NCBI GenBank assembly: GCA_039589315.1
Contig: JBDHHQ010000075.1
Location: forward strand, 1 to 22,313
DNA from: Gemmatimonadota bacterium
GTDB lineage: Bacteria; Gemmatimonadota; Gemmatimonadetes; Longimicrobiales; Gaopeijiaceae
Length of the DNA stretch: 22,313 bases
Reading direction: 5' to 3'
Shown piece by piece: positions 2,895-22,230 of this stretch. A program made the position numbers and the translations under genes. Within the stretch, counting starts at the first letter, position 1; each line of letters begins with the position of its first letter. The notes beneath the pieces were generated by a model. That model was not told the DNA's origin and made no database searches. It saw only the letters and a list, made by a program, of their open reading frames with translations.

Positions 2895-3707
2895 TTACCT
2901 GGCGACCACGACGACCGCACTGATTCGGCCCTCAATTGGTCCGGGCCCGAAGCGAGCTCGAAGGGCGTCAGCTGCGACCTGCGTGGCTTGATCGAGACCC
3001 TTGGGGTCTCTGGCCAATATCTCGTTCCGGAGCGGCGTGCCTTGACAATAGGCGATAGCCGGAATGTCAGCGCTAGCTGCGGGACTGACGTCGTCCCGCT
3101 GCGTGAGCGTGCATTCTGAGAAGCCGGCAGCGTTCAGGTCGGCGCTGATCTCTGCCGGAGACCCGTGACCATGTGGTGTGCGCGACAGAAAGAGGGGTGG
3201 ATCCTCGGGGTAGATCGCACCGACAGCCTGCGTCACGACGTCGGCAAACTCATTATGCTGAATACTGTTCCATACGCTGAATAGGAAGCAGCCACTCGGC
3301 CTGAGCACCCTACGAATCTCGCGATAGGCCGCGGCGCGATCAGGGAAGAACATGGTCGAGAACTGACACACGACCAGGTCGAATGAGTCGGCTTCGAACG
3401 GGAGAGCCATAACATCGGCCTGACGCCAGGTCACGGGCCGAGCCGTCCCCACGGACTGCCCGTGGGCGACCATCGCATCGTTCAAGTCGGTCGCGACAAC
3501 CGAGCAATGTCCTGGCAGCGCCCTCGCTAGCGCCCGCGTGACGACTCCGGTTCCACAGGCCACCTCGAGCACCGTCGTGGGCGCGAAGGACTGTGCCCGT
3601 TCCGCCAGGTCGTAGGCATAGGGCTCGAAGATGAGTGGCACCAGGGTCGATTCATAGAACTGCGCCACGTCCGAAGTGAACGAAGAGTCGATGGGGGGCT
3701 TGGTCAC
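2895..3707 (-). CDS. Class I SAM-dependent methyltransferase (UbiE/Methyltransf_11-like)
   Basis: Motif I VLEVACGTG, TDLNDAM, ADVMALPFEADSFDLVVCQF, RRVLRPSG. GTG start lies ~50 bp downstream of the attC at 3755. Confidence 0.92.
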   Translation of the reverse strand: MTKPPIDSSFTSDVAQFYESTLVPLIFEPYAYDLAERAQSFAPTTVLEVACGTGVVTRALARALPGHCSVVATDLNDAMVAHGQSVGTARPVTWRQADVMALPFEADSFDLVVCQFSTMFFPDRAAAYREIRRVLRPSGCFLFSVWNSIQHNEFADVVTQAVGAIYPEDPPLFLSRTPHGHGSPAEISADLNAAGFSECTLTQRDDVSPAASADIPAIAYCQGTPLRNEILARDPKGLDQATQVAADALRARFGPGPIEGRISAVVVVAR

Positions 3708-3754
3708 TGTCGCATCATGCCTCGATGGGGATCCATACTCGTCGGCTACTCGCG

Positions 3755-3934
3755 AGCTAGCGGACCCTGCGATTCTGCTGCGCCACCTAGCTGCTCACCG
3801 CGCAGCGACGTGAACACCGCAGGTGTGAACGGAGCCAGCGATCAAGGCTCATCGCTCCAAGGAGCGCCGGCAACGAGGAGACTCCTGAGCCGATTCCCGT
3901 CCGCCGCGTCTGCAGCAGCAAACGCGTGTGAGAG
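3755..3934 (-). repeat. attC site, long family copy 1 (both R boxes degenerate)
   Basis: + strand reads agctagc-ggaccctgcgattctgctgcg...cgcgtctgcagcagcaaacgcgt-gtgagag. The ~130-bp centre is shared with the copies at 5507, 8906, 17934 and 22056. Confidence 0.82.
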
Positions 3935-3952
3935 CGCATCTCTGGCGGAGAC

Positions 3953-4720
3953 TTAGGAGCCATGATCGGTCTCGAGCATCGCCAAGAGGTCGTCGACCTC
4001 CGCAATGACGACGCCAAAGCCACCGGTGAAACCGGCCTGGTCCAGGCGGAAGCCGAGTCGGATCGCCATGGCCTGCATCGAAAGGTTGAGCTTGCGGTCC
4101 AACCTAGGCTCGGCAACTGCAGTTCGGGCTACGGCTCCGACGGGGTGTATCCATGAGGCGTCCGTACATCTGAGCGGAGAGTCGTCGAGGCAAGTGTCGC
4201 GGATGAACATCTGGAGGTCCGCCGGTACGATGCTGCGTACGACCTCCCGGTAATGAGCTTGGTCCGCACTATAGTCCACTGGGTCTAGCTGGTTCGCGAC
4301 GTTTGCATAGAACCTGCTTAGTGAGCTTCTCAGGCTGTCACTCCGCAGGACACGCAGGTTGCCGGTGCTGATCAGATCGTCATATGCGCTGCGTGCTACC
4401 ACTGGGTCGGTAATCCGACTCGCCTGAAGCAACGAGGCCAGAAACCCTAGGGTATCCGCAGGCAGGTCGGCGAGACCGGCGAGGATCGGCTGAACTGCCC
4501 TCCCATGCTCGAGCAGCATCTCATAATGCTCGGCGTTCTCGATGATGTGTTCCCGAGTCTCGCGAAGGTCGGCGATAATCCGGGCCACATACACGCGTTC
4601 GGCCTGCCTCTCCTGGCGACCCTCCCACCACGCGTCGATCCCGAACGCCAAGAGGATGCTTCCAACGATCACCACGCCTTCGGCGAGTACGCGCAGCGAC
4701 GGAAACTGACGGCTCATCAC
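3953..4720 (-). CDS. Membrane-anchored hypothetical protein (DUF6090-like cassette protein)
   Basis: N-terminal EGVVIVGSILLAFGIDAWW TM segment followed by coiled coil, plus AYDDLISTGNLRVL motif. The ORF lies between two attC sites. Confidence 0.8.
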   Translation of the reverse strand: MMSRQFPSLRVLAEGVVIVGSILLAFGIDAWWEGRQERQAERVYVARIIADLRETREHIIENAEHYEMLLEHGRAVQPILAGLADLPADTLGFLASLLQASRITDPVVARSAYDDLISTGNLRVLRSDSLRSSLSRFYANVANQLDPVDYSADQAHYREVVRSIVPADLQMFIRDTCLDDSPLRCTDASWIHPVGAVARTAVAEPRLDRKLNLSMQAMAIRLGFRLDQAGFTGGFGVVIAEVDDLLAMLETDHGS

Positions 4721-4742
4721 ATCCTTGAGTCCGGGAGATGTG

Positions 4743-4790
4743 CTCTAACGGATTGCGATTCTGCTACGCCGCCGGCCCGCACACAAGCGC
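4743..4790 (-). repeat. attC half-site (R'/L' arm only)
   Basis: ctctaac-ggattgcgattctgcta matches the R'/L' arm of the other sites. The continuation ggcccgcacacaagcg resembles the flanks at 12269 and 20632. No matching L''/R'' arm was found. Confidence 0.7.
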
Positions 4791-4832
4791 GATCGGCTGG
4801 CTCGATGAGACCGATTTTCCGCCTCATGTACC

Positions 4833-5054
4833 TTAGGGGACGAAGGAGAAGACGTCGTTAGGACTGTAAACCATGTCCTCCGTACGCTCTGCAGACCACA
4901 TCCCCACTGTTGAATCAGCCCGCCAGTTTCCGGCTCGATTGCCGTCTTTCTGGAGACGGTAAGCAGCCAGATTGTGGGACTCTGGATCGTTCGAAACGAA
5001 CCCGTGGTCGAGTGGGGTGGCGCCGTGATTGAATCGCAGGTCCTTGAAGGTGGA
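4833..5054 (-). pseudogene. Start-less 73-codon open frame, probable 3' remnant of a cassette gene
   Basis: STFKDLRFNHGATPLDHGFVSNDPES...VFSFVP* directly follows, in frame, the TGA of the 5055-5486 gene. Confidence 0.35.
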
Positions 5055-5506: not shown

Positions 5507-5798
5507 TTTTAACGACTCTGCGATTCTGCTGCGTGACCGACCCGTCCACCGTGCGGCGACGTGAACACCGTAGGTGTGAACGGTGCAGGCGATCAAGAAC
5601 TCTTGCGGCTTGGCGGAACCGAGGCTGTCGGCGCCTATCCGTCGCAGGCAGGCATTACTCCCTCGGTTCGTACACGATGACCTGGCCCGTCAGCCTCTTA
5701 CGGTCAGATCGAATCATGGCGACTCCGAGGAGCACCGCGACGAGGAGCCTCCTGAGCCGATTCCCGGTCACCGTGTCAGCAGCCGCCGCCCGTTGGGT
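5507..5798 (-). repeat. attC site, long family copy 2, interrupted by ~125 bp of foreign sequence
   Basis: ttttaac-gactctgcgattctgctgcg...gatcaag [5598-5722 insert] ctccgaggagcaccgcgacgaggagcctcctgagccgattcc...cagcag...gttgggt. Confidence 0.8.
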
Positions 5799-7291: not shown

Positions 7292-7879
7292 TTAGCAGGA
7301 GCCCTCACGTGATAGTTCTGCGATGCGTGTCCGCACCCAAGGTGCCTCCTCGTGAGCCGGCCAATTCAACAGCCAGGCCCGATAACGTTCGATGAGCAGC
7401 GCAGACTGGGCGCCCCCGTCCCCATCCTCGCATGCCGCAGCGTCCAGTAGACGTACCAGGCGGAACTCGTGATCCCCGATCACCCAATGCTTCGGATCTC
7501 GGACTCGGCCTATCCAATTCTCCGAGGGCCGAATCGGGCTGGTCTCTGACGCAGCGACAAAGTGACCGGGATTCTCGATGATGTGACGATGATTCGGAGT
7601 GAGTTGCTCCTCCGGGATACCAGCCAGGTTGAGGCGTCCTTGGTAGAAGAACATGTCGTCCACGCTTGACGCGATCTGAAGGTCAGCCAGGTACAGGAGA
7701 CCGAACGTATCGTCGCATTGAGGACCGTCGACAAGACTACCACTCACCTCAGCGGGACTATGCCGGACCATTTCTCGTTGACGTTGGACAGCATCCTGAG
7801 ACAGGCAAGAGTTGGCACGATCCGACGAACACGCTGCCGCCGCGATGGCGCACAGAGCGATGAGCTGTTGCGTTCTCAA
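7292..7879 (-). CDS. Putative lipoprotein, unknown function
   Basis: TTG start with GGAAGGA upstream, signal peptide with lipobox AAA-C, bounded by attC sequences. Confidence 0.78.
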   Translation of the reverse strand: MRTQQLIALCAIAAAACSSDRANSCLSQDAVQRQREMVRHSPAEVSGSLVDGPQCDDTFGLLYLADLQIASSVDDMFFYQGRLNLAGIPEEQLTPNHRHIIENPGHFVAASETSPIRPSENWIGRVRDPKHWVIGDHEFRLVRLLDAAACEDGDGGAQSALLIERYRAWLLNWPAHEEAPWVRTRIAELSREGSC

Positions 7880-7907: not shown

Positions 7908-8011
7908 GCCCAACGGATTTGGGATTCTGCTGCGAGACCATGACAGCTTACCCCACCAGCGTAGCTTGCGGCCACCCAGCCTACCGCGACAGCAGCGATT
8001 CCCTGTTAGAG
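7908..8011 (-). repeat. attC site, canonical 104 bp
   Basis: Minus strand reads CTCTAAC-AGGGA-ATCGCTGC...GCAGCAGAAT-CCCAAATCC-GTTGGGC. Both R boxes are intact and L'' carries an extra base. Confidence 0.9.
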
Positions 8012-8880
8012 TGCGAACCGTCCAACTCGATGAGGTAGAGACGATAATGGTCGCCCTCGGTCCGCCTGCCCGCGTAGACGATGGACCGACCATCCGGGGA
8101 CCAGGCGGGTTCGGTGACCCTGTGGAGCCCTCCGGCCAAGCGCCGCTCTTGGATGCCGTCGGAACGCATGACGTGAAGAGCCCGCGAACCGTCGTCCTCG
8201 ACTCCTACGAACACGATTCGCTCTCCATCCGGCGCCCAAGCCGGGCAGAAGTCATGCCCCGGCCCGAACGTCAACCGCCTGAGCACGCGCGTCTCGAGCG
8301 AGAGCGCGTAGATCTCGTCATCCTGACCTGAGGTGTCGCGCCGCGAGAAGAACGCGAGGGTCTCCCCGTCAGGGCTCCACCTCGGCCAAACGTCCCGGCC
8401 CGGCGGGATGGGGGCGTCCCGGACGAGCCCTGTCTCGAGGTCCAGGATCTGCAGCCTGAGGTCAGGCGACTCTCCTACCGAGAATGCGATCTCCGTTCCG
8501 CTCGGGGACCAGTGAGGGAAGGTCTCCGAGCCCGTGAGCTCGACTCTTCGAGTGTCGCCGCTGTTGAGGTCCGAGATGTGGAGATCGGAGCCGGACCCTG
8601 TCGTTCGGACGAATGCGATCCTGGATCCATCCGGGGACCAGGTAGGGGATCGCTCATCCTCGGGGGATGACGTGACCGCGGCGATCGATCCGGACTCAGT
8701 ATCCAGGAGCAGGATGTCCCAGTTCCCGGATCGGGTCGATTCAAACGCGATCTTCGATCCGCCGGGGCTCCACGAGGGAGCGCGGCTCGTGAAGGCAGGC
8801 GGCGTTAGTGGACGCGACTCCCCCTCTTGCATGGCCAGCCCGCCGAGAAGCCCCAGAATCACAAGTGCATTCATCCGCAT
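7981..8880 (-). CDS. TolB-like PD40/WD40-repeat beta-propeller protein, secreted
   Basis: Six PxWSPDG-type repeats and an N-terminal signal peptide. The 3' end runs into the attC. Confidence 0.9.
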   Translation of the reverse strand: MRMNALVILGLLGGLAMQEGESRPLTPPAFTSRAPSWSPGGSKIAFESTRSGNWDILLLDTESGSIAAVTSSPEDERSPTWSPDGSRIAFVRTTGSGSDLHISDLNSGDTRRVELTGSETFPHWSPSGTEIAFSVGESPDLRLQILDLETGLVRDAPIPPGRDVWPRWSPDGETLAFFSRRDTSGQDDEIYALSLETRVLRRLTFGPGHDFCPAWAPDGERIVFVGVEDDGSRALHVMRSDGIQERRLAGGLHRVTEPAWSPDGRSIVYAGRRTEGDHYRLYLIELDGSHSNRESLLSR

Positions 8881-8905: not shown

Positions 8906-9077
8906 CTCTAACGGATCACAGTTCTGCCGCGCGACCGGCCCGTCCACCAGCGCAGCGACGTGAACACCGTAGCTGTGAACGGAGCGAGCGATCAAGGCTC
9001 GTCGCTCCGAGGAGCACCGCGACGAGGAGCCTCCTGAGCCGTCCCCCCACCGCGTCTGCAGCAATCGCTTGCCAGAC
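8906..9077 (-). repeat. attC site, long family copy 3 (R'' degenerate)
   Basis: ctctaac-ggatcacagttctgccgcgcgacc...cgcgtctgcagcaatcgctt-gccagac, with the shared centre. Confidence 0.85.
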
Positions 9078-9310
9078 CGTGTCTCCCCCGCCTACCGGGT
9101 AACTCTCTCCGGGTAGCTGTGCGGCACGTGCTCGGCGCCGTCACACCTCCTGGCCGGGCCCGAAGTTCTTGTCGATAGGGCTAGCTTTTTCACCTCGCGA
9201 CGGTGGCGCGGGCAGTGGCCAAGCTGGACTGCGGTCGTAGCGCTGTCCTTCAGCGTCATCTACGTTACCTGTAGAAGACGTGCGTGCCCTTGACCGTCGA
9301 GACGAGGAGA

Positions 9311-9885: not shown

Positions 9886-9950
9886 GTCTCACGTCTTGCG
9901 ATTCTGTTGCGCGGCCTACCCGCTGACCCGCGTAGGAACGTCAACACCGT
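9886..9950 (-). repeat. attC half-site, long family (R'/L' arm, truncated)
   Basis: gtctcac-gtcttgcgattctgttgcgcggcctacccgctgacccgcgtaggaacgtcaacaccgt aligns with the first ~65 bp of the 22056 copy, then breaks at the ASST stop codon. Confidence 0.72.
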
Positions 9951-9951
9951 C

Positions 9952-11241
9952 CTATGAACCTCCCCCGCTTCTACGAATGTCCGGCGGGATACGCCACTCG
10001 AGGTTGTTCGGCGGTGTCACCGAGAGCTCCTCAGGTCTAGGCATCGTCCTGAGCTGGGGGGTGAAGTCGTACGGGACGACAGACGGACGGGTCGTGCCTC
10101 CGCGATTCACGTATTCCCATACGATCTCGCCGTCTGGACGCACTTGGAAGAGCCTCCCTGTGTTGTCCTCCGCTATGTACGTATTGCCATTGGGCAACCG
10201 CTTCTGCGTCCCCATGCTCTTGCTGAAGAACTTGAGGTTTGCGTAGCCCTCGGTCTCGTAGATCCAGACGATCTCCTTGGTGAGCGGATCCATCTCAATG
10301 ATGAACGACTGACCAGTGTGCGTTCTGTGCCTGGTGAAGAGTCCATTGTCGAACAGAATGATGTTACCCGCCCCGGGCAGTCCCTTCTCGATCATCTCTG
10401 CCTCATGGGCGTGTGCCATGCCGCCCTTGTAGTCGTGCGTTCCCTCCCAGACGATCTGGCTCGTCTCCTTGTCGATGATGTACACCATGTCGATGTTTCG
10501 GGCGTTCAGTAGGATGTTGCCAGGCCTGAACCTCTGGTCTCCGGCGTCGAACCACTTGTTCGCGGGAAGAGGCGCGACCGAGTTCACATGCAGCCAATCG
10601 CCTTCGGGAGTGGCGGGTGAGAACCGGTTCAGATCGAGGTGTTCGTGCGCATGCCATTGCCACACGACCTCTCCATCGAGGTCCACCTCGTATAGGTCCG
10701 CGCCGAGTTGTGTTTCGCCGCTCCCCCTCAATCGTGGGCCCCACCACGGCGCGATCTCGACGTCCCTTACCCGCTGCTGGAACTCTTCAGGTATCGGCTC
10801 GTGAGCGATGAGCAGCCGATTGTTGTTGGGCAATACCCGCAAGTCGTTGACAGACCCGATTCCCTCGTGCGTCCACACGACGTTCCCGTCCCAGTCGTAT
10901 TCGTAGATCGTCTTGTTGGGACCCACATATACAAGGTGGCCGTTGGGTAACAGCCGACTACGCTTGTTGAAGAACGGAGGTACGTCCCACGTGTGGACCA
11001 CGTTGCCGTTCATGTCGATGAGCCGGATGTCGCTGGGGCTATCGCCGGCGGCCGCGGCTCGCACTTGCGCGCTCGCATGATTCCCCATCGCACTGTGGTC
11101 TGATATCAGGATGTAGCTGCTGTATGCCTCAGCAGGATTGTAGATCGTTGTGCCGGTGGGGAAGACACTTTGAGCCGACGTCGCCTGGGTCGGAACGGCC
11201 GCGGCTAGCAAGGCAGCAAGGAGGGTCGGAATCGTCTTCAT
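9952..11241 (-). CDS. Secreted arylsulfotransferase (ASST) family protein
   Basis: DWLHVNSV, LLNARNID, HAHEAEMI, ILFDNG and QKRLPNGNTYIAE motifs. Start re-called to MKTIPTLLAALL (signal peptide). Confidence 0.88.
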   Translation of the reverse strand: MKTIPTLLAALLAAAVPTQATSAQSVFPTGTTIYNPAEAYSSYILISDHSAMGNHASAQVRAAAAGDSPSDIRLIDMNGNVVHTWDVPPFFNKRSRLLPNGHLVYVGPNKTIYEYDWDGNVVWTHEGIGSVNDLRVLPNNNRLLIAHEPIPEEFQQRVRDVEIAPWWGPRLRGSGETQLGADLYEVDLDGEVVWQWHAHEHLDLNRFSPATPEGDWLHVNSVAPLPANKWFDAGDQRFRPGNILLNARNIDMVYIIDKETSQIVWEGTHDYKGGMAHAHEAEMIEKGLPGAGNIILFDNGLFTRHRTHTGQSFIIEMDPLTKEIVWIYETEGYANLKFFSKSMGTQKRLPNGNTYIAEDNTGRLFQVRPDGEIVWEYVNRGGTTRPSVVPYDFTPQLRTMPRPEELSVTPPNNLEWRIPPDIRRSGGGS

Positions 11242-11387
11242 GGTTTTCAGGTGCTCCTGGACAGGGACTCCCTCGACAGCTTCTTGGAGTTCCGCTGCGC
11301 CCCGGACAGCGAAGACGCTCCCAAGCGTTGAGCGCATCGTGATCTCTGGCGTTCAGCTCGAGCTGCAGGCGGATTGTTCCACCCACT

Positions 11388-11412
11388 GTCTGACGGCTTT
11401 GAAACTCTGCTG
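11388..11412 (-). repeat. attC R'/L' arm, left flank of the IS insertion
   Basis: gtctgac-ggctttgaaactctgctg resembles (c)ctaac-ggacttgcgattctgctg. Confidence 0.65.
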
Positions 11413-11500
11413 ACCTTATGAAGCGGATGGCCTCCCAATGGCCGACGCGCGACGGTGTCTCCTCTCCAGACCTGCGGCTGTCCACCAACAGGAGGCCATC

Positions 11501-11967
11501 ATGCACGTCGCAGGAATAGACGCTCACGCAACGTACCTCGTCGTCGCGATCGTGAGCAACGACGGAACCCTCGTCCAAAGGCCGCTCCCGTGACTCTGCT
11601 CCGCACCGTGCCCGGCATTGGCTCCTTCCGTGGGCTCCTTCTCGCCACCGAGATCCTGCAGATCGCACGGTTCAGGACCCCCGCCAATCTGGTCAGTTAC
11701 GCCGGCCTTGCGCCTCGCGCGTCTCGTTCCGGCATGACGGCCCGGTACGGACCCATCCCCGCCGGGGCCAACCGTTGGCTCAGGAACGCGTTCGTCCAGA
11801 CCGTCGTCATCCATCGACGCCGAGCACCCGAGAGTTGGCTGTACCGCTACTACGATGAGATGAAGGCGCGCCTCGATTGGGGGGTCGCTCGCATCGCCAC
11901 GGCTCGCAAGCTGGCCCGGGCCGTTCACGCCATGCTTCGCACCGGCGAGGTCTGGCGTCATGCTTGA
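11501..11967 (+). pseudogene. IS110-family transposase with large internal deletion and frameshift
   Basis: GGAGG-ATG start MHVAGIDAHATYLVVAIV (RuvC-like DEDD N-terminus, stop 11591-93) is joined out of frame to the Transposase_20 C-terminus LLRTVPGIG...SYAGLAP..SRSG...ATARKLARAVHAML. Confidence 0.92.
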
Positions 11968-11980
11968 ATTCAGGATCCAC

Positions 11981-12099
11981 GGGGTGAGCTCCCGGTCGCG
12001 CATGTCGCTCCGACGACCTCTCTTCTGCTGACTGAGCCCCCCACCTCGCATAGGAGATCATGGGACGTCCCAATCGCTCTAGGGGCGAAACCCGAGGTG
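11981..12099 (+). ncRNA. Predicted bridge/seek RNA core (target-binding and donor-binding loops)
   Basis: Loop 1: outer stem GCTC/GAGC, inner hairpin GTCG/CGAC, loop strands GGTCGCGCA and TTCTGCTG matching attC. Loop 2: outer stem CACCTCG/CGAGGTG, inner hairpin TGGGA/TCCCA, strands partly matching the IS ends. Folded by eye. Confidence 0.7.
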
Positions 12100-12263
12100 C
12101 TCGAGTCGGGGATCCGGCTCGCCTGAGATCGGTCGCGTGATCCGATACGCTTCATTACGCCACAGGTGGCCTGGGGAATGACACGCACTATCAAGACCCG
12201 CTCTGGCCGGCTCACGCAGGCCCCGGGAGAGCTGCGTCCTCTTGACGGGGTCCGCTTTATAGG

Positions 12264-12297
12264 TGCGTGGCCCGTCAGGACACAAGCTAAGCGTATC
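12264..12297 (-). repeat. attC continuation, right flank of the IS (R'' arm missing)
   Basis: tgcgtggcccgtcaggacacaagctaagcgtatc is similar to 20620-20656 and to the 4743 half-site. Confidence 0.55.
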
Positions 12298-12359
12298 AAC
12301 CCTCGTCCAGCCCCTGTTCGGGGCTGACTACGGCCAACGCGATAGTCACGCCCACGGGC

Positions 12360-13865
12360 TCAATCGCACTCTCCCGGACCCGCCAAACTTCGGAGGGTCC
12401 CGAGGTCGTCATCCACGGCGTCCCGCGCTCGGCTCTCGGACCAGTTGAAGCTCCTCCAGTCCGCAGGTCGCTCAGGGCCCCACAGGCGTAGGAGCCCGCT
12501 CGCCACCAAGCACTGTGCCTCATCCGACAGCTCGCTGAGGCGGGCGACCAAGAGCGGGGCTGCGTCACTCCCGAGCGAGGCGAGGTACTCCACGTCCACC
12601 CCACCCAACTCCGCGATTCGGTCGAGATTGTGACGGGCGACCAAACCGGCAGGATTGATGAGCTGCAGCGCACCGACCAGGACGAACGCCGTGACGAGGC
12701 CGCCAAACGCGAAGCGGTCGCGACGGCCGCTCAACACAGTCGCCCCGAACCAGACCACGACTACCGTCAACCACACGAGTGCCGCGGTCACCACGACACG
12801 CAGCTCCGTGAGGCCGTAGGCGGTCTGGTAGACCAGCATGCGTTGGATCGCGGAGGCCACGATGATCAAGAGGAGAAGGAGGTGGACGCCCGCGAATCCG
12901 GCGAATACCGAACGTGCCTTCAGACTGCGGTCACCGAGCAGGACGTGGGTGGCGAGGAGCCAGGGGATGGCCAGCGCCACCGCGGCGACGAGCTGGAAGA
13001 AGCCGGCACGGGCGTAGGCAGCGTACGTGAGAGCCGGAGTGACCTCGACCCAGGAGCCTCCTCCGAACAGGTAGCGGAATTGGACGATCACGAAGCCCAG
13101 AAACAGGAGATCCACCAGGCCTAGGGCGGTGGCCACCTCGGCGATCCCAAGAGTCGGGCGGGCCGGCTGGAGGCGTCGAATCCCCTCCAACCTCGTGCCC
13201 GACGAAACGCCGACGAGATAGCCGCAGGCGAGCCAGGAGAGGACGGCTATGACCACCAGGTGTGAGGCGAAGGCCTGCAAGTCGATCCTTACGAAGTCTC
13301 CGACAATCGTGGCGAACACCTCGTCAGCCGAAATGAAGAGCGCTCCGAAAACCACCAGCGGGACGAGTGCGAGGAGCACCCCGCCCAAGGCAGTTCGCAC
13401 CACGGTGCGTGCAGTCCCTCGAGATGTGTCCGTTCCCAGCTCACCCCAGTGCTCGCGGTCGATCAGTCGAGCGCTTCCGAACGCCGAGTGAAGCCCGGCT
13501 CCGGCTACGGCCTCGACAACGTCCAGGGTCCCGGACCGCCTGATCCAGGCGCGCCCCGCGTCGAGAGCCGGCAGCGCAAACGCTGTGCACGCCGCCAGGA
13601 GAATTCCGAACCGAAGAAGGTCCGAGCCCCGCCACAGCAGGGCGGCACCACAAAGCAGCCCGACTCCGATCCATATCGACGCCTCCCGGCTGAGGGGCGA
13701 TTCACCGCTCCGAGCTACTAGCCAGACGGAGGCGGAGAGTCCCACGAACAACAGGAAGAAGTTGAGGCCGGGACCCGCGGACGCCCGAAGAAGCTGGTCT
13801 CCGGCGAAACCCATGCCGATGCTAGCCGCGAGGATGGCGGTCACAGGCAAAGCGCGGTCGTTCAT
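12360..13865 (-). CDS. DUF4153 (DUF4173) multi-pass membrane protein
   Basis: [49 protein letters not shown] and YLASLGSDA motifs; ATGA overlap with uppS. Confidence 0.88.
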
Positions 13866-17859: not shown

Positions 17860-17933
17860 CCTCTCCAGGTGGATCCAGTCCGCAGCCTCGGAGAACGTTG
17901 CTCGGCCAGTTGTGTGCGGGTGGCCCGGGCAAT

Positions 17934-18110
17934 GCCCAACGGACTTGCGACCCTGCTGCGCGACCTAGCCGCCCACGGCGCGGCGACGTGAACACCGTAG
18001 GTGTGACCGGAGCAAGCGATCAAGGCTCATCGCTCCGAGGAGCACCGTGCCGAGGAGCCTTCTGAGCCGTTCCCGTCCACCGCGTCTGCAGCAATCCGCT
18101 TGTGTTGGAG
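17934..18110 (-). repeat. attC site, long family copy 4
   Basis: gcccaac-ggacttgcgaccctgctgcgcgacc...cgcgtctgcagcaatccgcttgt-gttggag; lies 20 bp after the TonB receptor stop. Confidence 0.85.
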
Positions 18111-18130
18111 CGCAGCTTGTCCTGCGAGCC

Positions 18131-20578: not shown

Positions 20579-20621
20579 GCCCCGGGGCTGCGCCCTCTCG
20601 ACTTGCTTCCGCTTATAGATG
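20579..20621 (+). mobile_element. Right-end relic of a second IS1111-type element
   Basis: gccccggggctgcgccctctcgacttgcttccgcttatagaTG aligns with gccccgggagagctgcgtcctcttgacggggtccgctttataggTG (12220-12265). Confidence 0.72.
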
Positions 20622-20656
20622 CTGCGCGGCTGGCCCGGTAACAAGCGAAGCGTATC
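20620..20656 (-). repeat. attC remnant flanking the second IS end
   Basis: tgctgcgcggctggcccggtaacaagcgaagcgtatc is the L'-box continuation; same subtype as 12264-12297. Confidence 0.6.
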
Positions 20657-20966
20657 CCACAGCTAATCATGGAAACTGGATCTCGTCAGCCGCGTCGGGG
20701 CCTTCGTAGAATCTCGGGTTTTGCTACGTACAATGACTTACAATGGTGATGAAGCTATCGTGCGTCGGCGGTTGAGCTACCCAGAGATTTCCTCTGACCC
20801 AAGCCAAGTCAGCTCACCTCATCGTCGGTACTTCGTGGTGGCCATAGGAGGAGGACGAGGTGCGGCGGTCTGAGCGCGCGGGCAGGGCTACGTAGAGCGA
20901 CCCGACGATATCAGCGGAGCCCTCCGGCTGTCGTGAGTCGACGATTGAGCAACCAGGGAGCGCGAG

Positions 20967-22046: not shown

Positions 22047-22055
22047 GAGGGGGCT

Positions 22056-22230
22056 TCCTAACGGACTTGTGATTCTACGGCGCGACCTACCTGCTGACGC
22101 GCGCAGCGACGTGAACACCCTCGGTGTGAACGGAGCAAGCGATCAAGGCTCATCGCTCCGTGGGAGCGCGGCGACGAGGAGCCTCCGAGCCGTTCCCGCC
22201 CACCGCGTCTGCAGCAATCGCTTGATACTC
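22056..22230 (-). repeat. attC site, long family copy 5 (R'' degenerate)
   Basis: tcctaac-ggacttgtgattctacggcgcgacc...cgcgtctgcagcaatcgctt-gatactc, with the shared centre. Confidence 0.85.

Follow-up and report, generated by a model that had tools for sequence, protein, structure and literature searches.

The window analysed here is a stretch of 22,313 bases and corresponds to the entire contig C75 of a Gemmatimonadota genome assembly, which comprises 288 contigs at 95% completeness. It holds an array of genes and repeats of about 170 bp, which lies between backbone genes encoding a MacB-like permease on the left and DUF4153-UppS on the right. At the right edge of this array an insertion element was detected, the features of which are compiled in Table 1. 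The element proper comprises positions 11413-12263 on the plus strand, i.e. 851 bases plus one TG, and is flanked by a TG on either side (11411-11412 and 12264-12265).

Table 1. Features of the element, of its target site and of the surrounding repeats in the window.
Feature	Position	Strand	Evidence or remark
~170-bp repeat	2841-2898	same strand as the other repeats	
~170-bp repeat	3751-3945	same strand as the other repeats	
~170-bp repeat with a 125-base insert	5510-5786	same strand as the other repeats	
~170-bp repeat	8916-9080	same strand as the other repeats	
~170-bp repeat, half	9897-9949	same strand as the other repeats	
Target left half: attC-like arm CTGACGG..CTCTGC and core TG (11411-11412)	11388-11412	+	resembles the plus-strand arm of the ~170-bp repeats of the window and the left flanks of intact relatives
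Left inverted repeat	11413-11427	+	ACCTTATGAAGCGGA; conserved at the left ends of relatives; complementary to 12251-12263
Transposase, first 30 codons, then TGA	11501-11593 (codons 11501-11590)	+	translation; columns 1-29 in the alignment with 22 intact homologues
Deletion junction, net 550 bp	11588-11596 (about)	+	TCC(C)G microhomology in relatives
C-terminal part of transposase (Transposase_20), other frame, stop 11965-11967	11590-11967	+	PF02371, E 3.2e-16
Non-coding region, predicted seekRNA/bridge RNA	11968-12263	+	296 bp; aligns end to end with 13 relatives
Predicted guide segment GGTCGCGCA	11994-12002	+	complementary to right target flank (7/9); co-varies with the right flank across elements
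Predicted guide segment TTCTGCTG	12023-12030	+	matches left target flank and TG (7/8); co-varies with the left flank across elements
Loop corresponding to the right end of the element itself (AGGTG)	12090-12104	+	3 bases lost after 12094
TTGACG hexamer	12242-12247	+	TTGAC in 14 of 14 aligned elements
Right inverted repeat and core TG	12251-12265	+	TCCGCTTTATAGG at 12251-12263, TG at 12264-12265; all relatives end ..TATAG[G/A/C]TG and diverge beyond
Target right half: CGTGGCC, CCGTCAGGACA (complement of 11388-11397), ACAAGCTAAGCGTATC, CTCGTCCAG	12266-12311	+	resembles the right flank of L036 and that of the footprint 20626-20695
~170-bp repeat	17930-18120	same strand as the other repeats	
~170-bp repeat	22051-22230	same strand as the other repeats	

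The ends were set by comparison with the relatives L029, L030 and L031 and with ten further paired-end relatives, which place them at TG-ACCTTAT...TATAGG-TG. L029 and L030 are copies within one Longimicrobiales genome and show 99.5% identity over 1266 bases. Termini of the relatives start with TG-A[C/T]CTTATAA[A/G]GCG and finish with ...CGCTTTATAG[G/A/C]-TG. The inverted repeats ACCTTATGAAGCGGA and TCCGCTTTATAGG are located 0-1 base from the TG cores, that is, in the (sub)terminal position characteristic of IS1111. Thus, the inverted repeats and TG boundaries described in the initial annotation are indeed present; the limits 11388 and 12297 given there are too wide. Judged against intact copies and uninterrupted sites, the outer 23 and 32 bases (11388-11410 and 12266-12297) are target DNA, and the outer repeat formed by TGTCTGACGG (11388) and CCGTCAGGACA (12272) therefore belongs to the target and lies outside the element. 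The 20 bases left of the TG differ at two positions between L029 and L030 and occur in another version in a contig from sequencing run X3; their apparent conservation from copy to copy stems solely from the likeness of the targets.

Inside the element, the transposase gene is present as two separated pieces. It starts with an ATG at 11501, preceded by an AGGAGG at 11490-11495, and the product of its 30 N-terminal codons is MHVAGIDAHATYLVVAIVSNDGTLVQRPLP. When longer relatives were searched with the 127 C-terminal residues as query, 505 proteins were obtained at E <= 0.001, and the best 22 of these 505 have 337-339 amino acids, are 75-85% identical to the query and contain both PF01548 and PF02371. 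In the alignment with these homologues, the pieces of the window occupy columns 1-29 and everything from 214 onward; residues 30-213 are deleted. In accordance with this, a tblastn search with the intact homologue P0002 gave 85% identity over residues 214-336 at the C75 locus, and the PF01548 profile gave no match at this locus, where most of the domain is deleted. Four acidic positions are nearly invariant in the alignment (D7, E54, D92 and D95), which we take to be the catalytic DEDD set of the family; the copy in the window retains D7 and has lost E54, D92 and D95.

On the DNA level, a single net gap of 550 bp separates the copy from the intact relatives L030 and L031. Positions 2589-3145 of L030 have no counterpart in the window, and 670 of the 851 aligned bases are identical between both copies. 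Since 550 is not a multiple of three, the N-terminal and the C-terminal part of the transposase are out of frame. The element is therefore non-autonomous by an internal out-of-frame deletion, as proposed before. A side observation concerns the leader of the gene: positions 11426-11500 form an inverted repeat of 21 bases with 76% complementarity, through which the ribosome-binding site of the transposase, AGGAGG, would pair with the region of the left end, and this could mask translation in read-through transcripts.

The stop codon is followed by 296 bp of non-coding DNA up to the right end, compared to 88 bp that precede the ATG, and this layout is common to the 13 relatives. A long non-coding region downstream of tnp serves as a criterion of the IS1111 family (PMC11187229). 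Together with the PF02371 domain, the PF01548 and PF02371 domains of the homologues and the inverted repeats, it upholds the assignment to the IS1111 type. A consensus fold calculated with RNAalifold comprises 29 pairs, eight of them with compensatory changes. In Rfam, no family reached its gathering score in the window, and around the element only matches at chance level were obtained at E values up to 10. The view that the full region of about 290 bp has been retained holds insofar as it can be aligned from end to end with all 13 relatives; it fails for three bases, which have been lost after position 12094.

The region contains two variable blocks, which read the two sides of the target. 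In the aligned elements, the block preceding CATGTCG is the reverse complement of the TG plus the right flank, and the block preceding A[C/T]TGAGCC equals the left flank plus the TG. In L057, for example, the block before CATGTCG is TCGCCTTGCA at a right flank of TGCAAGGCGA, and the block before A[C/T]TGAGCC is GAGCTG, as is the left flank; in L051, the block before CATGTCG is TTCACCACA and the right flank TGTGGTGAA. The corresponding blocks of the window, GGTCGCGCA and TTCTGCTG, are identical in the alignment to those of L030, where the flanks are matched perfectly, and they still match their own flanks at the majority of positions (Table 1). The guide-RNA region has been kept as well. Across 13 elements, 131 of 169 variable positions match between guide and own flank, which is an underestimate because a wrong block was taken for L030 (L053, whose block was missed by the pattern, was not counted). 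Shuffled pairings gave 72.7 +/- 8.0 matches and none of 5000 shuffles reached 131, a test which is inflated by the kinship of the 13 elements. Judged from this co-variation in the sequences, insertion is apparently site-specific and directed by complementary RNA segments.

A third segment is the loop that corresponds to the own right end of the element. It reads ATAGGTG, ATAGATG or ATAGCTG in the relatives and equals the respective right end in 12 of 13 cases, L057 being one base off. The three bases missing after 12094 in the window are present in all 13 relatives, and they read AAT in the contig from run X3. The TTGACG hexamer noticed earlier at 12242 is present as well, and its first five bases are conserved throughout the alignment. 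By analogy to ISEc11 (PMC11187229), it may represent the -35 element of a circle-junction promoter. In the abutted ends, no good -10 element was found at a distance of 16-18 bases from TTGACG; a TATGAA occurs 22 bases away.

The DNA interrupted by the element resembles the repeats of the array on one side. In the left flank, CTGACGGCTTTGAAACTCTGC-TG, a version of the repeat arm CTAACGGACTTGCGATTCTGC-TG can be recognised, and uninterrupted copies of this arm within the window continue directly into TG-CGCGACC. On the right, only CGTGGCC has been kept before the sequence diverges. This flank resembles those of L036 and of the footprint at 20626-20695 (ACAAGC-AAGCGTA...CGTCAG) and, given this likeness, it may represent a shorter subtype of the site. 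After removal of the element in silico, the rebuilt site forms a 10-bp stem with a loop of 22 bases, and its folding did not exceed that of shuffled sequences (z -0.43, and 0.05 for a longer version; 60 shuffles each). The earlier statement that the element splits an attC site is hence supported in part, by the left flank, which is homologous to the conserved repeat arm, and it is not borne out by the fold. As the left arm is recognisable, the right flank has diverged and the fold is no better than that of shuffles, we regard the locus as an attC-like site in degenerate form, located at the array's edge. No further site separates it from the backbone; a terminator-like hairpin (~12310-12328) and then the stop codon of the DUF4153 gene come next.

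The window contains seven or eight of the ~170-bp repeats, all on the same strand, and five of them lie 0-34 bp past the stop codons of minus-strand genes. Genome-wide, 37 merged matches were found on 14 contigs, and the repeats are co-oriented within C61 (5), C73 (7) and C75 (8). The attC end motifs (RYYYAAC ... GTTRRRY) are partly present in them. As single hairpins, the repeats fold like their shuffles (z 0.46 and 0.02), and their identity as attC sites therefore rests on position, end motifs and clustering. An integron integrase is encoded on contig C97 (342.6 bits at a cut-off of 265 bits), and no integrase gene was found within the window, i.e. beside the array. The integrase gene extends over C97:391-1323; an attC-arm-like motif (CATAAC..TTCTGCTGC) occurs at position 180, beyond its 3' end and near the start of the contig, and no ~170-bp repeats were found elsewhere on C97. 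Furthermore, the closest relatives of the genome (G001, G010 and G013) have only the backbone in common with it, starting at 12354-12373 (DUF4153, UppS and following); on the downstream side of the DUF4153 gene, their DNA bears no relation to that of the window. The genes left of 12354-12373 are thus not common to these genomes, as a variable cassette array would give.

As a minor observation, a copy of the 15-base target with one mismatch is located at 7925-7939, between the genes at 7292-7879 and 7981-8880. No full repeat was detected there by BLAST, and this stretch may be a remnant cassette site.

That the family targets attC-like sites is supported by intact relatives in other Gemmatimonadota genomes, which split such sites. 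Their split sites open with ..CTAAC or CCCAAC, and GTTAGGN or GTTATGN closes them 50-100 bases further on. Eight of these sites were rebuilt and folded, each against 60 shuffles, and three gave clear hairpins (L053, z -3.4; L054, z -3.6; L066, z -3.5), those of L053 and L054 pairing from end to end as expected of attC. The remaining five were weak (z of -1.1 for L040, -1.7 for L052, -1.0 for L030, -0.9 for L057 and -0.2 for L036). An empty allele that would reconstitute an attC site at the locus was found neither in relatives nor in the sequencing runs examined: 13 of 41 genomes, including G000 itself, match part of 10400-13300, and none of them shows an empty site.

The poor fold invites a reading in which the flanking palindrome is no integron site at all, but a hairpin, either a terminator or REP-like, that follows the DUF4153 gene and merely served the element as target. 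The rebuilt site offers nothing beyond the short stem and loop mentioned above, it abuts conserved backbone genes, and members of IS1111 that target REP sequences are described in PMC11187229. Nevertheless, this reading appears unlikely. Over the 20 bases preceding the TG, the flank matches the arm of the array repeats, the guides spell the arm consensus TTCTGC-TG-CGCGACC, and relatives with the same or similar guides occupy sites with CTAAC...GTTAGG ends; moreover, the terminator-like hairpin of the backbone is a separate structure. A second objection concerns the deletion, which might be an artefact of assembly, so that the true locus carries an intact element. The source is a fragmented metagenome assembly, repeats of the family break contigs elsewhere, namely at C214 and C27, and the junction lies within the short repeat TCC(C)G. 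Against this, the contig reads through without Ns, the copy bears further private lesions (the loss of three bases after 12094 and the flank mismatches), as expected for an old dead copy, and shortened copies recur in the family, with 1160 bp in L066 and 1283 bp in L080 compared to 1399-1461 bp in the others. Among all readings considered here, an artefact is the least probable. Among sequencing runs, the best match contained a fraction of 0.11 of the sampled words, so that the locus was present in none, and the four runs examined yielded short contigs only, in which the deletion junction as assembled was not covered and neither a joint across the element nor an empty site occurred.

The initial annotation had further suggested that the element could be mobilised in trans or lend its guide RNA to another IS1111-type transposase in the cell. 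Both ends and the guide region have been kept, and according to PMC11187229, the ends of ISEc11 can be mobilised by transposase and non-coding region provided in trans, and one seekRNA can serve transposases that have diverged. In addition, the genome harbours an element of a sister lineage. A profile of the non-coding region gave one further match on the contigs of the genome, C27:1-106, which is the right end of this element, and C214:4726-4829 is its left end including the ATG, running off the end of the contig. These ends are 92.5% (C214) and 90% (C27) identical to L035 (sublineage L034/L035/L066), and each lies in an arm of a ~170-bp repeat. On the other hand, the ends of the sister element (ATCTTATAAGGCG and CCTTATAGA) differ from those of the copy in the window, and its transposase gene, between the end of C214 and the start of C27, is unassembled. 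BLASTN searches of the genome for intact or identically deleted copies, with the whole element and with the non-coding region, returned the self-match only (the next best hit covered 39 bases, E 0.012), and tblastn with P0002 matched C75 only, so that neither a second nor an identically deleted copy of the lineage is present in the assembly. A search with the PF02371 and PF01548 profiles revealed one other IS110-type gene, which is distant, cut by the end of C240 and not detected by tblastn with P0002 at E 1e-3.

The same array also holds vacant targets. Seven unoccupied sites in the window show at most two mismatches to the 15-base target TTCTGC-TG-CGCGACC and match it better than the occupied site does; at up to three mismatches there are 10 matches in the window, nine of them on the plus strand compared to 1.3 expected. 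That these better targets are empty, that the loop for the own right end lacks three bases, and that neither a 24-mer spanning the junction of the deletion nor a 29-mer taken from the non-coding region occurs exactly in the metagenome collection (0 matches each) all argue against a working non-autonomous element, which we regard as quite improbable. As the sister element is cut by the ends of C214 and C27, mobilisation in trans is unsupported rather than refuted, and at 288 contigs and 95% completeness a missing intact partner is weak evidence. A bolder version holds that the copy is a miniature element consisting of guide RNA and ends, which depends on the sister transposase in the gap between C214 and C27 and at the same time bars the integrase from the outermost site of the array; it seems slightly less credible again.

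We consider it most probable, at roughly 85%, that the locus carries an internally deleted copy of an IS1111-type, guide-RNA-directed element from a lineage of Gemmatimonadota with attC-like sites as targets, and that this copy is probably stranded at its point of insertion. An intact ancestor would have entered the array at the TG of its outermost cassette site, with the insertion carried out by the ancestor's own transposase-RNA complex. The recombination would have been of the circle-junction type of IS110/IS1111, leaving no duplication beyond the core, and the transposase gene would have decayed after the insertion. The copy is immobile on its own. It is likely that the insertion disables the site for recombination by the integrase, and it can reasonably be inferred that it fixes the neighbouring cassettes.

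Homing of IS1111 members to attC sites has been on record since 2008-2009. For Pseudomonas, Tetu and Holmes reportedly described decayed copies at array ends in 2008, and the copy described here would resemble those. Like the IS1111-attC group (ISPst6, ISKpn4, ISPa21 and ISPa25), the lineage combines a DEDD-type transposase, a non-coding region downstream of tnp and near-terminal inverted repeats with an orientation-specific insertion into one arm of the site, which is attC-like in the present case. The guide RNA of attC-targeting members has been known since 2024 (PMC11187229). In the seekRNA layout published there, two segments that read the two target strands are located downstream of tnp, also in the attC-targeting ISKpn4, ISPst6 and ISPa25, and the two predicted segments of the copy follow this published order. 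What differs is the host phylum, here Gemmatimonadota, and the fact that this copy is dead. Among the plasmid-borne IS110-family genes searched (matches in 1601 plasmid records), none exceeds 37% identity to the transposase, and a lineage separate from the named group is therefore probable on the basis of these comparisons.

With regard to orientation, ISPa21 and ISPst6 are antisense to the cassettes and lie near the 5' end of attC, and their outward promoter is inactive or untested, according to PMC3001079. Here, too, the element is antisense to the neighbouring genes, tnp being on the plus and the genes on the minus strand. In contrast to the published 5' position, gene orientation would place the insertion some 20 bases away from the 3' end at the cassette boundary, an assignment of strands that is insecure at such near-palindromic sites. 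The orientation of cassettes in the relatives, deduced from flanking open frames and third-position GC, was ambiguous.

Similarities also exist to the seekRNA or bridge RNA recombinases ISEc11 and IS621. These share a guide RNA with a loop for the target and a loop for the own end, a core dinucleotide common to donor and target, and a conserved -35-like hexamer at the right end as a potential junction promoter. The lineage described here differs from them in its TG core, in its structured cassette-site target and in that its RNA is predicted only. Multiple solo copies of the small RNA of ISPpu9 have been studied experimentally in Pseudomonas putida (PMC12288879). They have in common with the present case that guide-type RNA genes of the IS110 family persist without a transposase gene; unlike them, the copy in the window is a single decayed one with no sign of spread.

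No new mechanism emerges from these data, and the copy is an ordinary dead representative of a known type of element. Its value lies in extending attC-homing, RNA-guided IS1111 elements to the cassette arrays of Gemmatimonadota, in providing a readable case of co-variation between guide and target in 13 natural elements, and in illustrating the usual fate of such elements, namely to decay where they inserted, at an array's edge.

Beside the attC-like sites, a guide-RNA gene itself seems to have served as target in one relative. In L029, a contig of a Longimicrobiales MAG, a 1.4-kb insertion (3655-5032) follows directly after AATAGGTG, in the donor-end loop of the non-coding region of another copy. 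Its own end is CATAGGTGC, and a partial copy is located after its right end. This looks like an element of the family that landed in the guide-RNA gene of a relative, at a look-alike of its own end.

For the annotation of the window, the limits of the element have been corrected and a second footprint has been marked. The latter, at 20579-20695, is positioned upstream of a minus-strand, ArsR-like reading frame and consists of the last ~46 bases of a right end of the sister lineage (..CCGCTTATAGA-TG), followed by an attC-like remainder that ends with CGTCAGCC. The footprint is 74% similar to 12220-12297, and this likeness probably misled the earlier assignment of the right limit.
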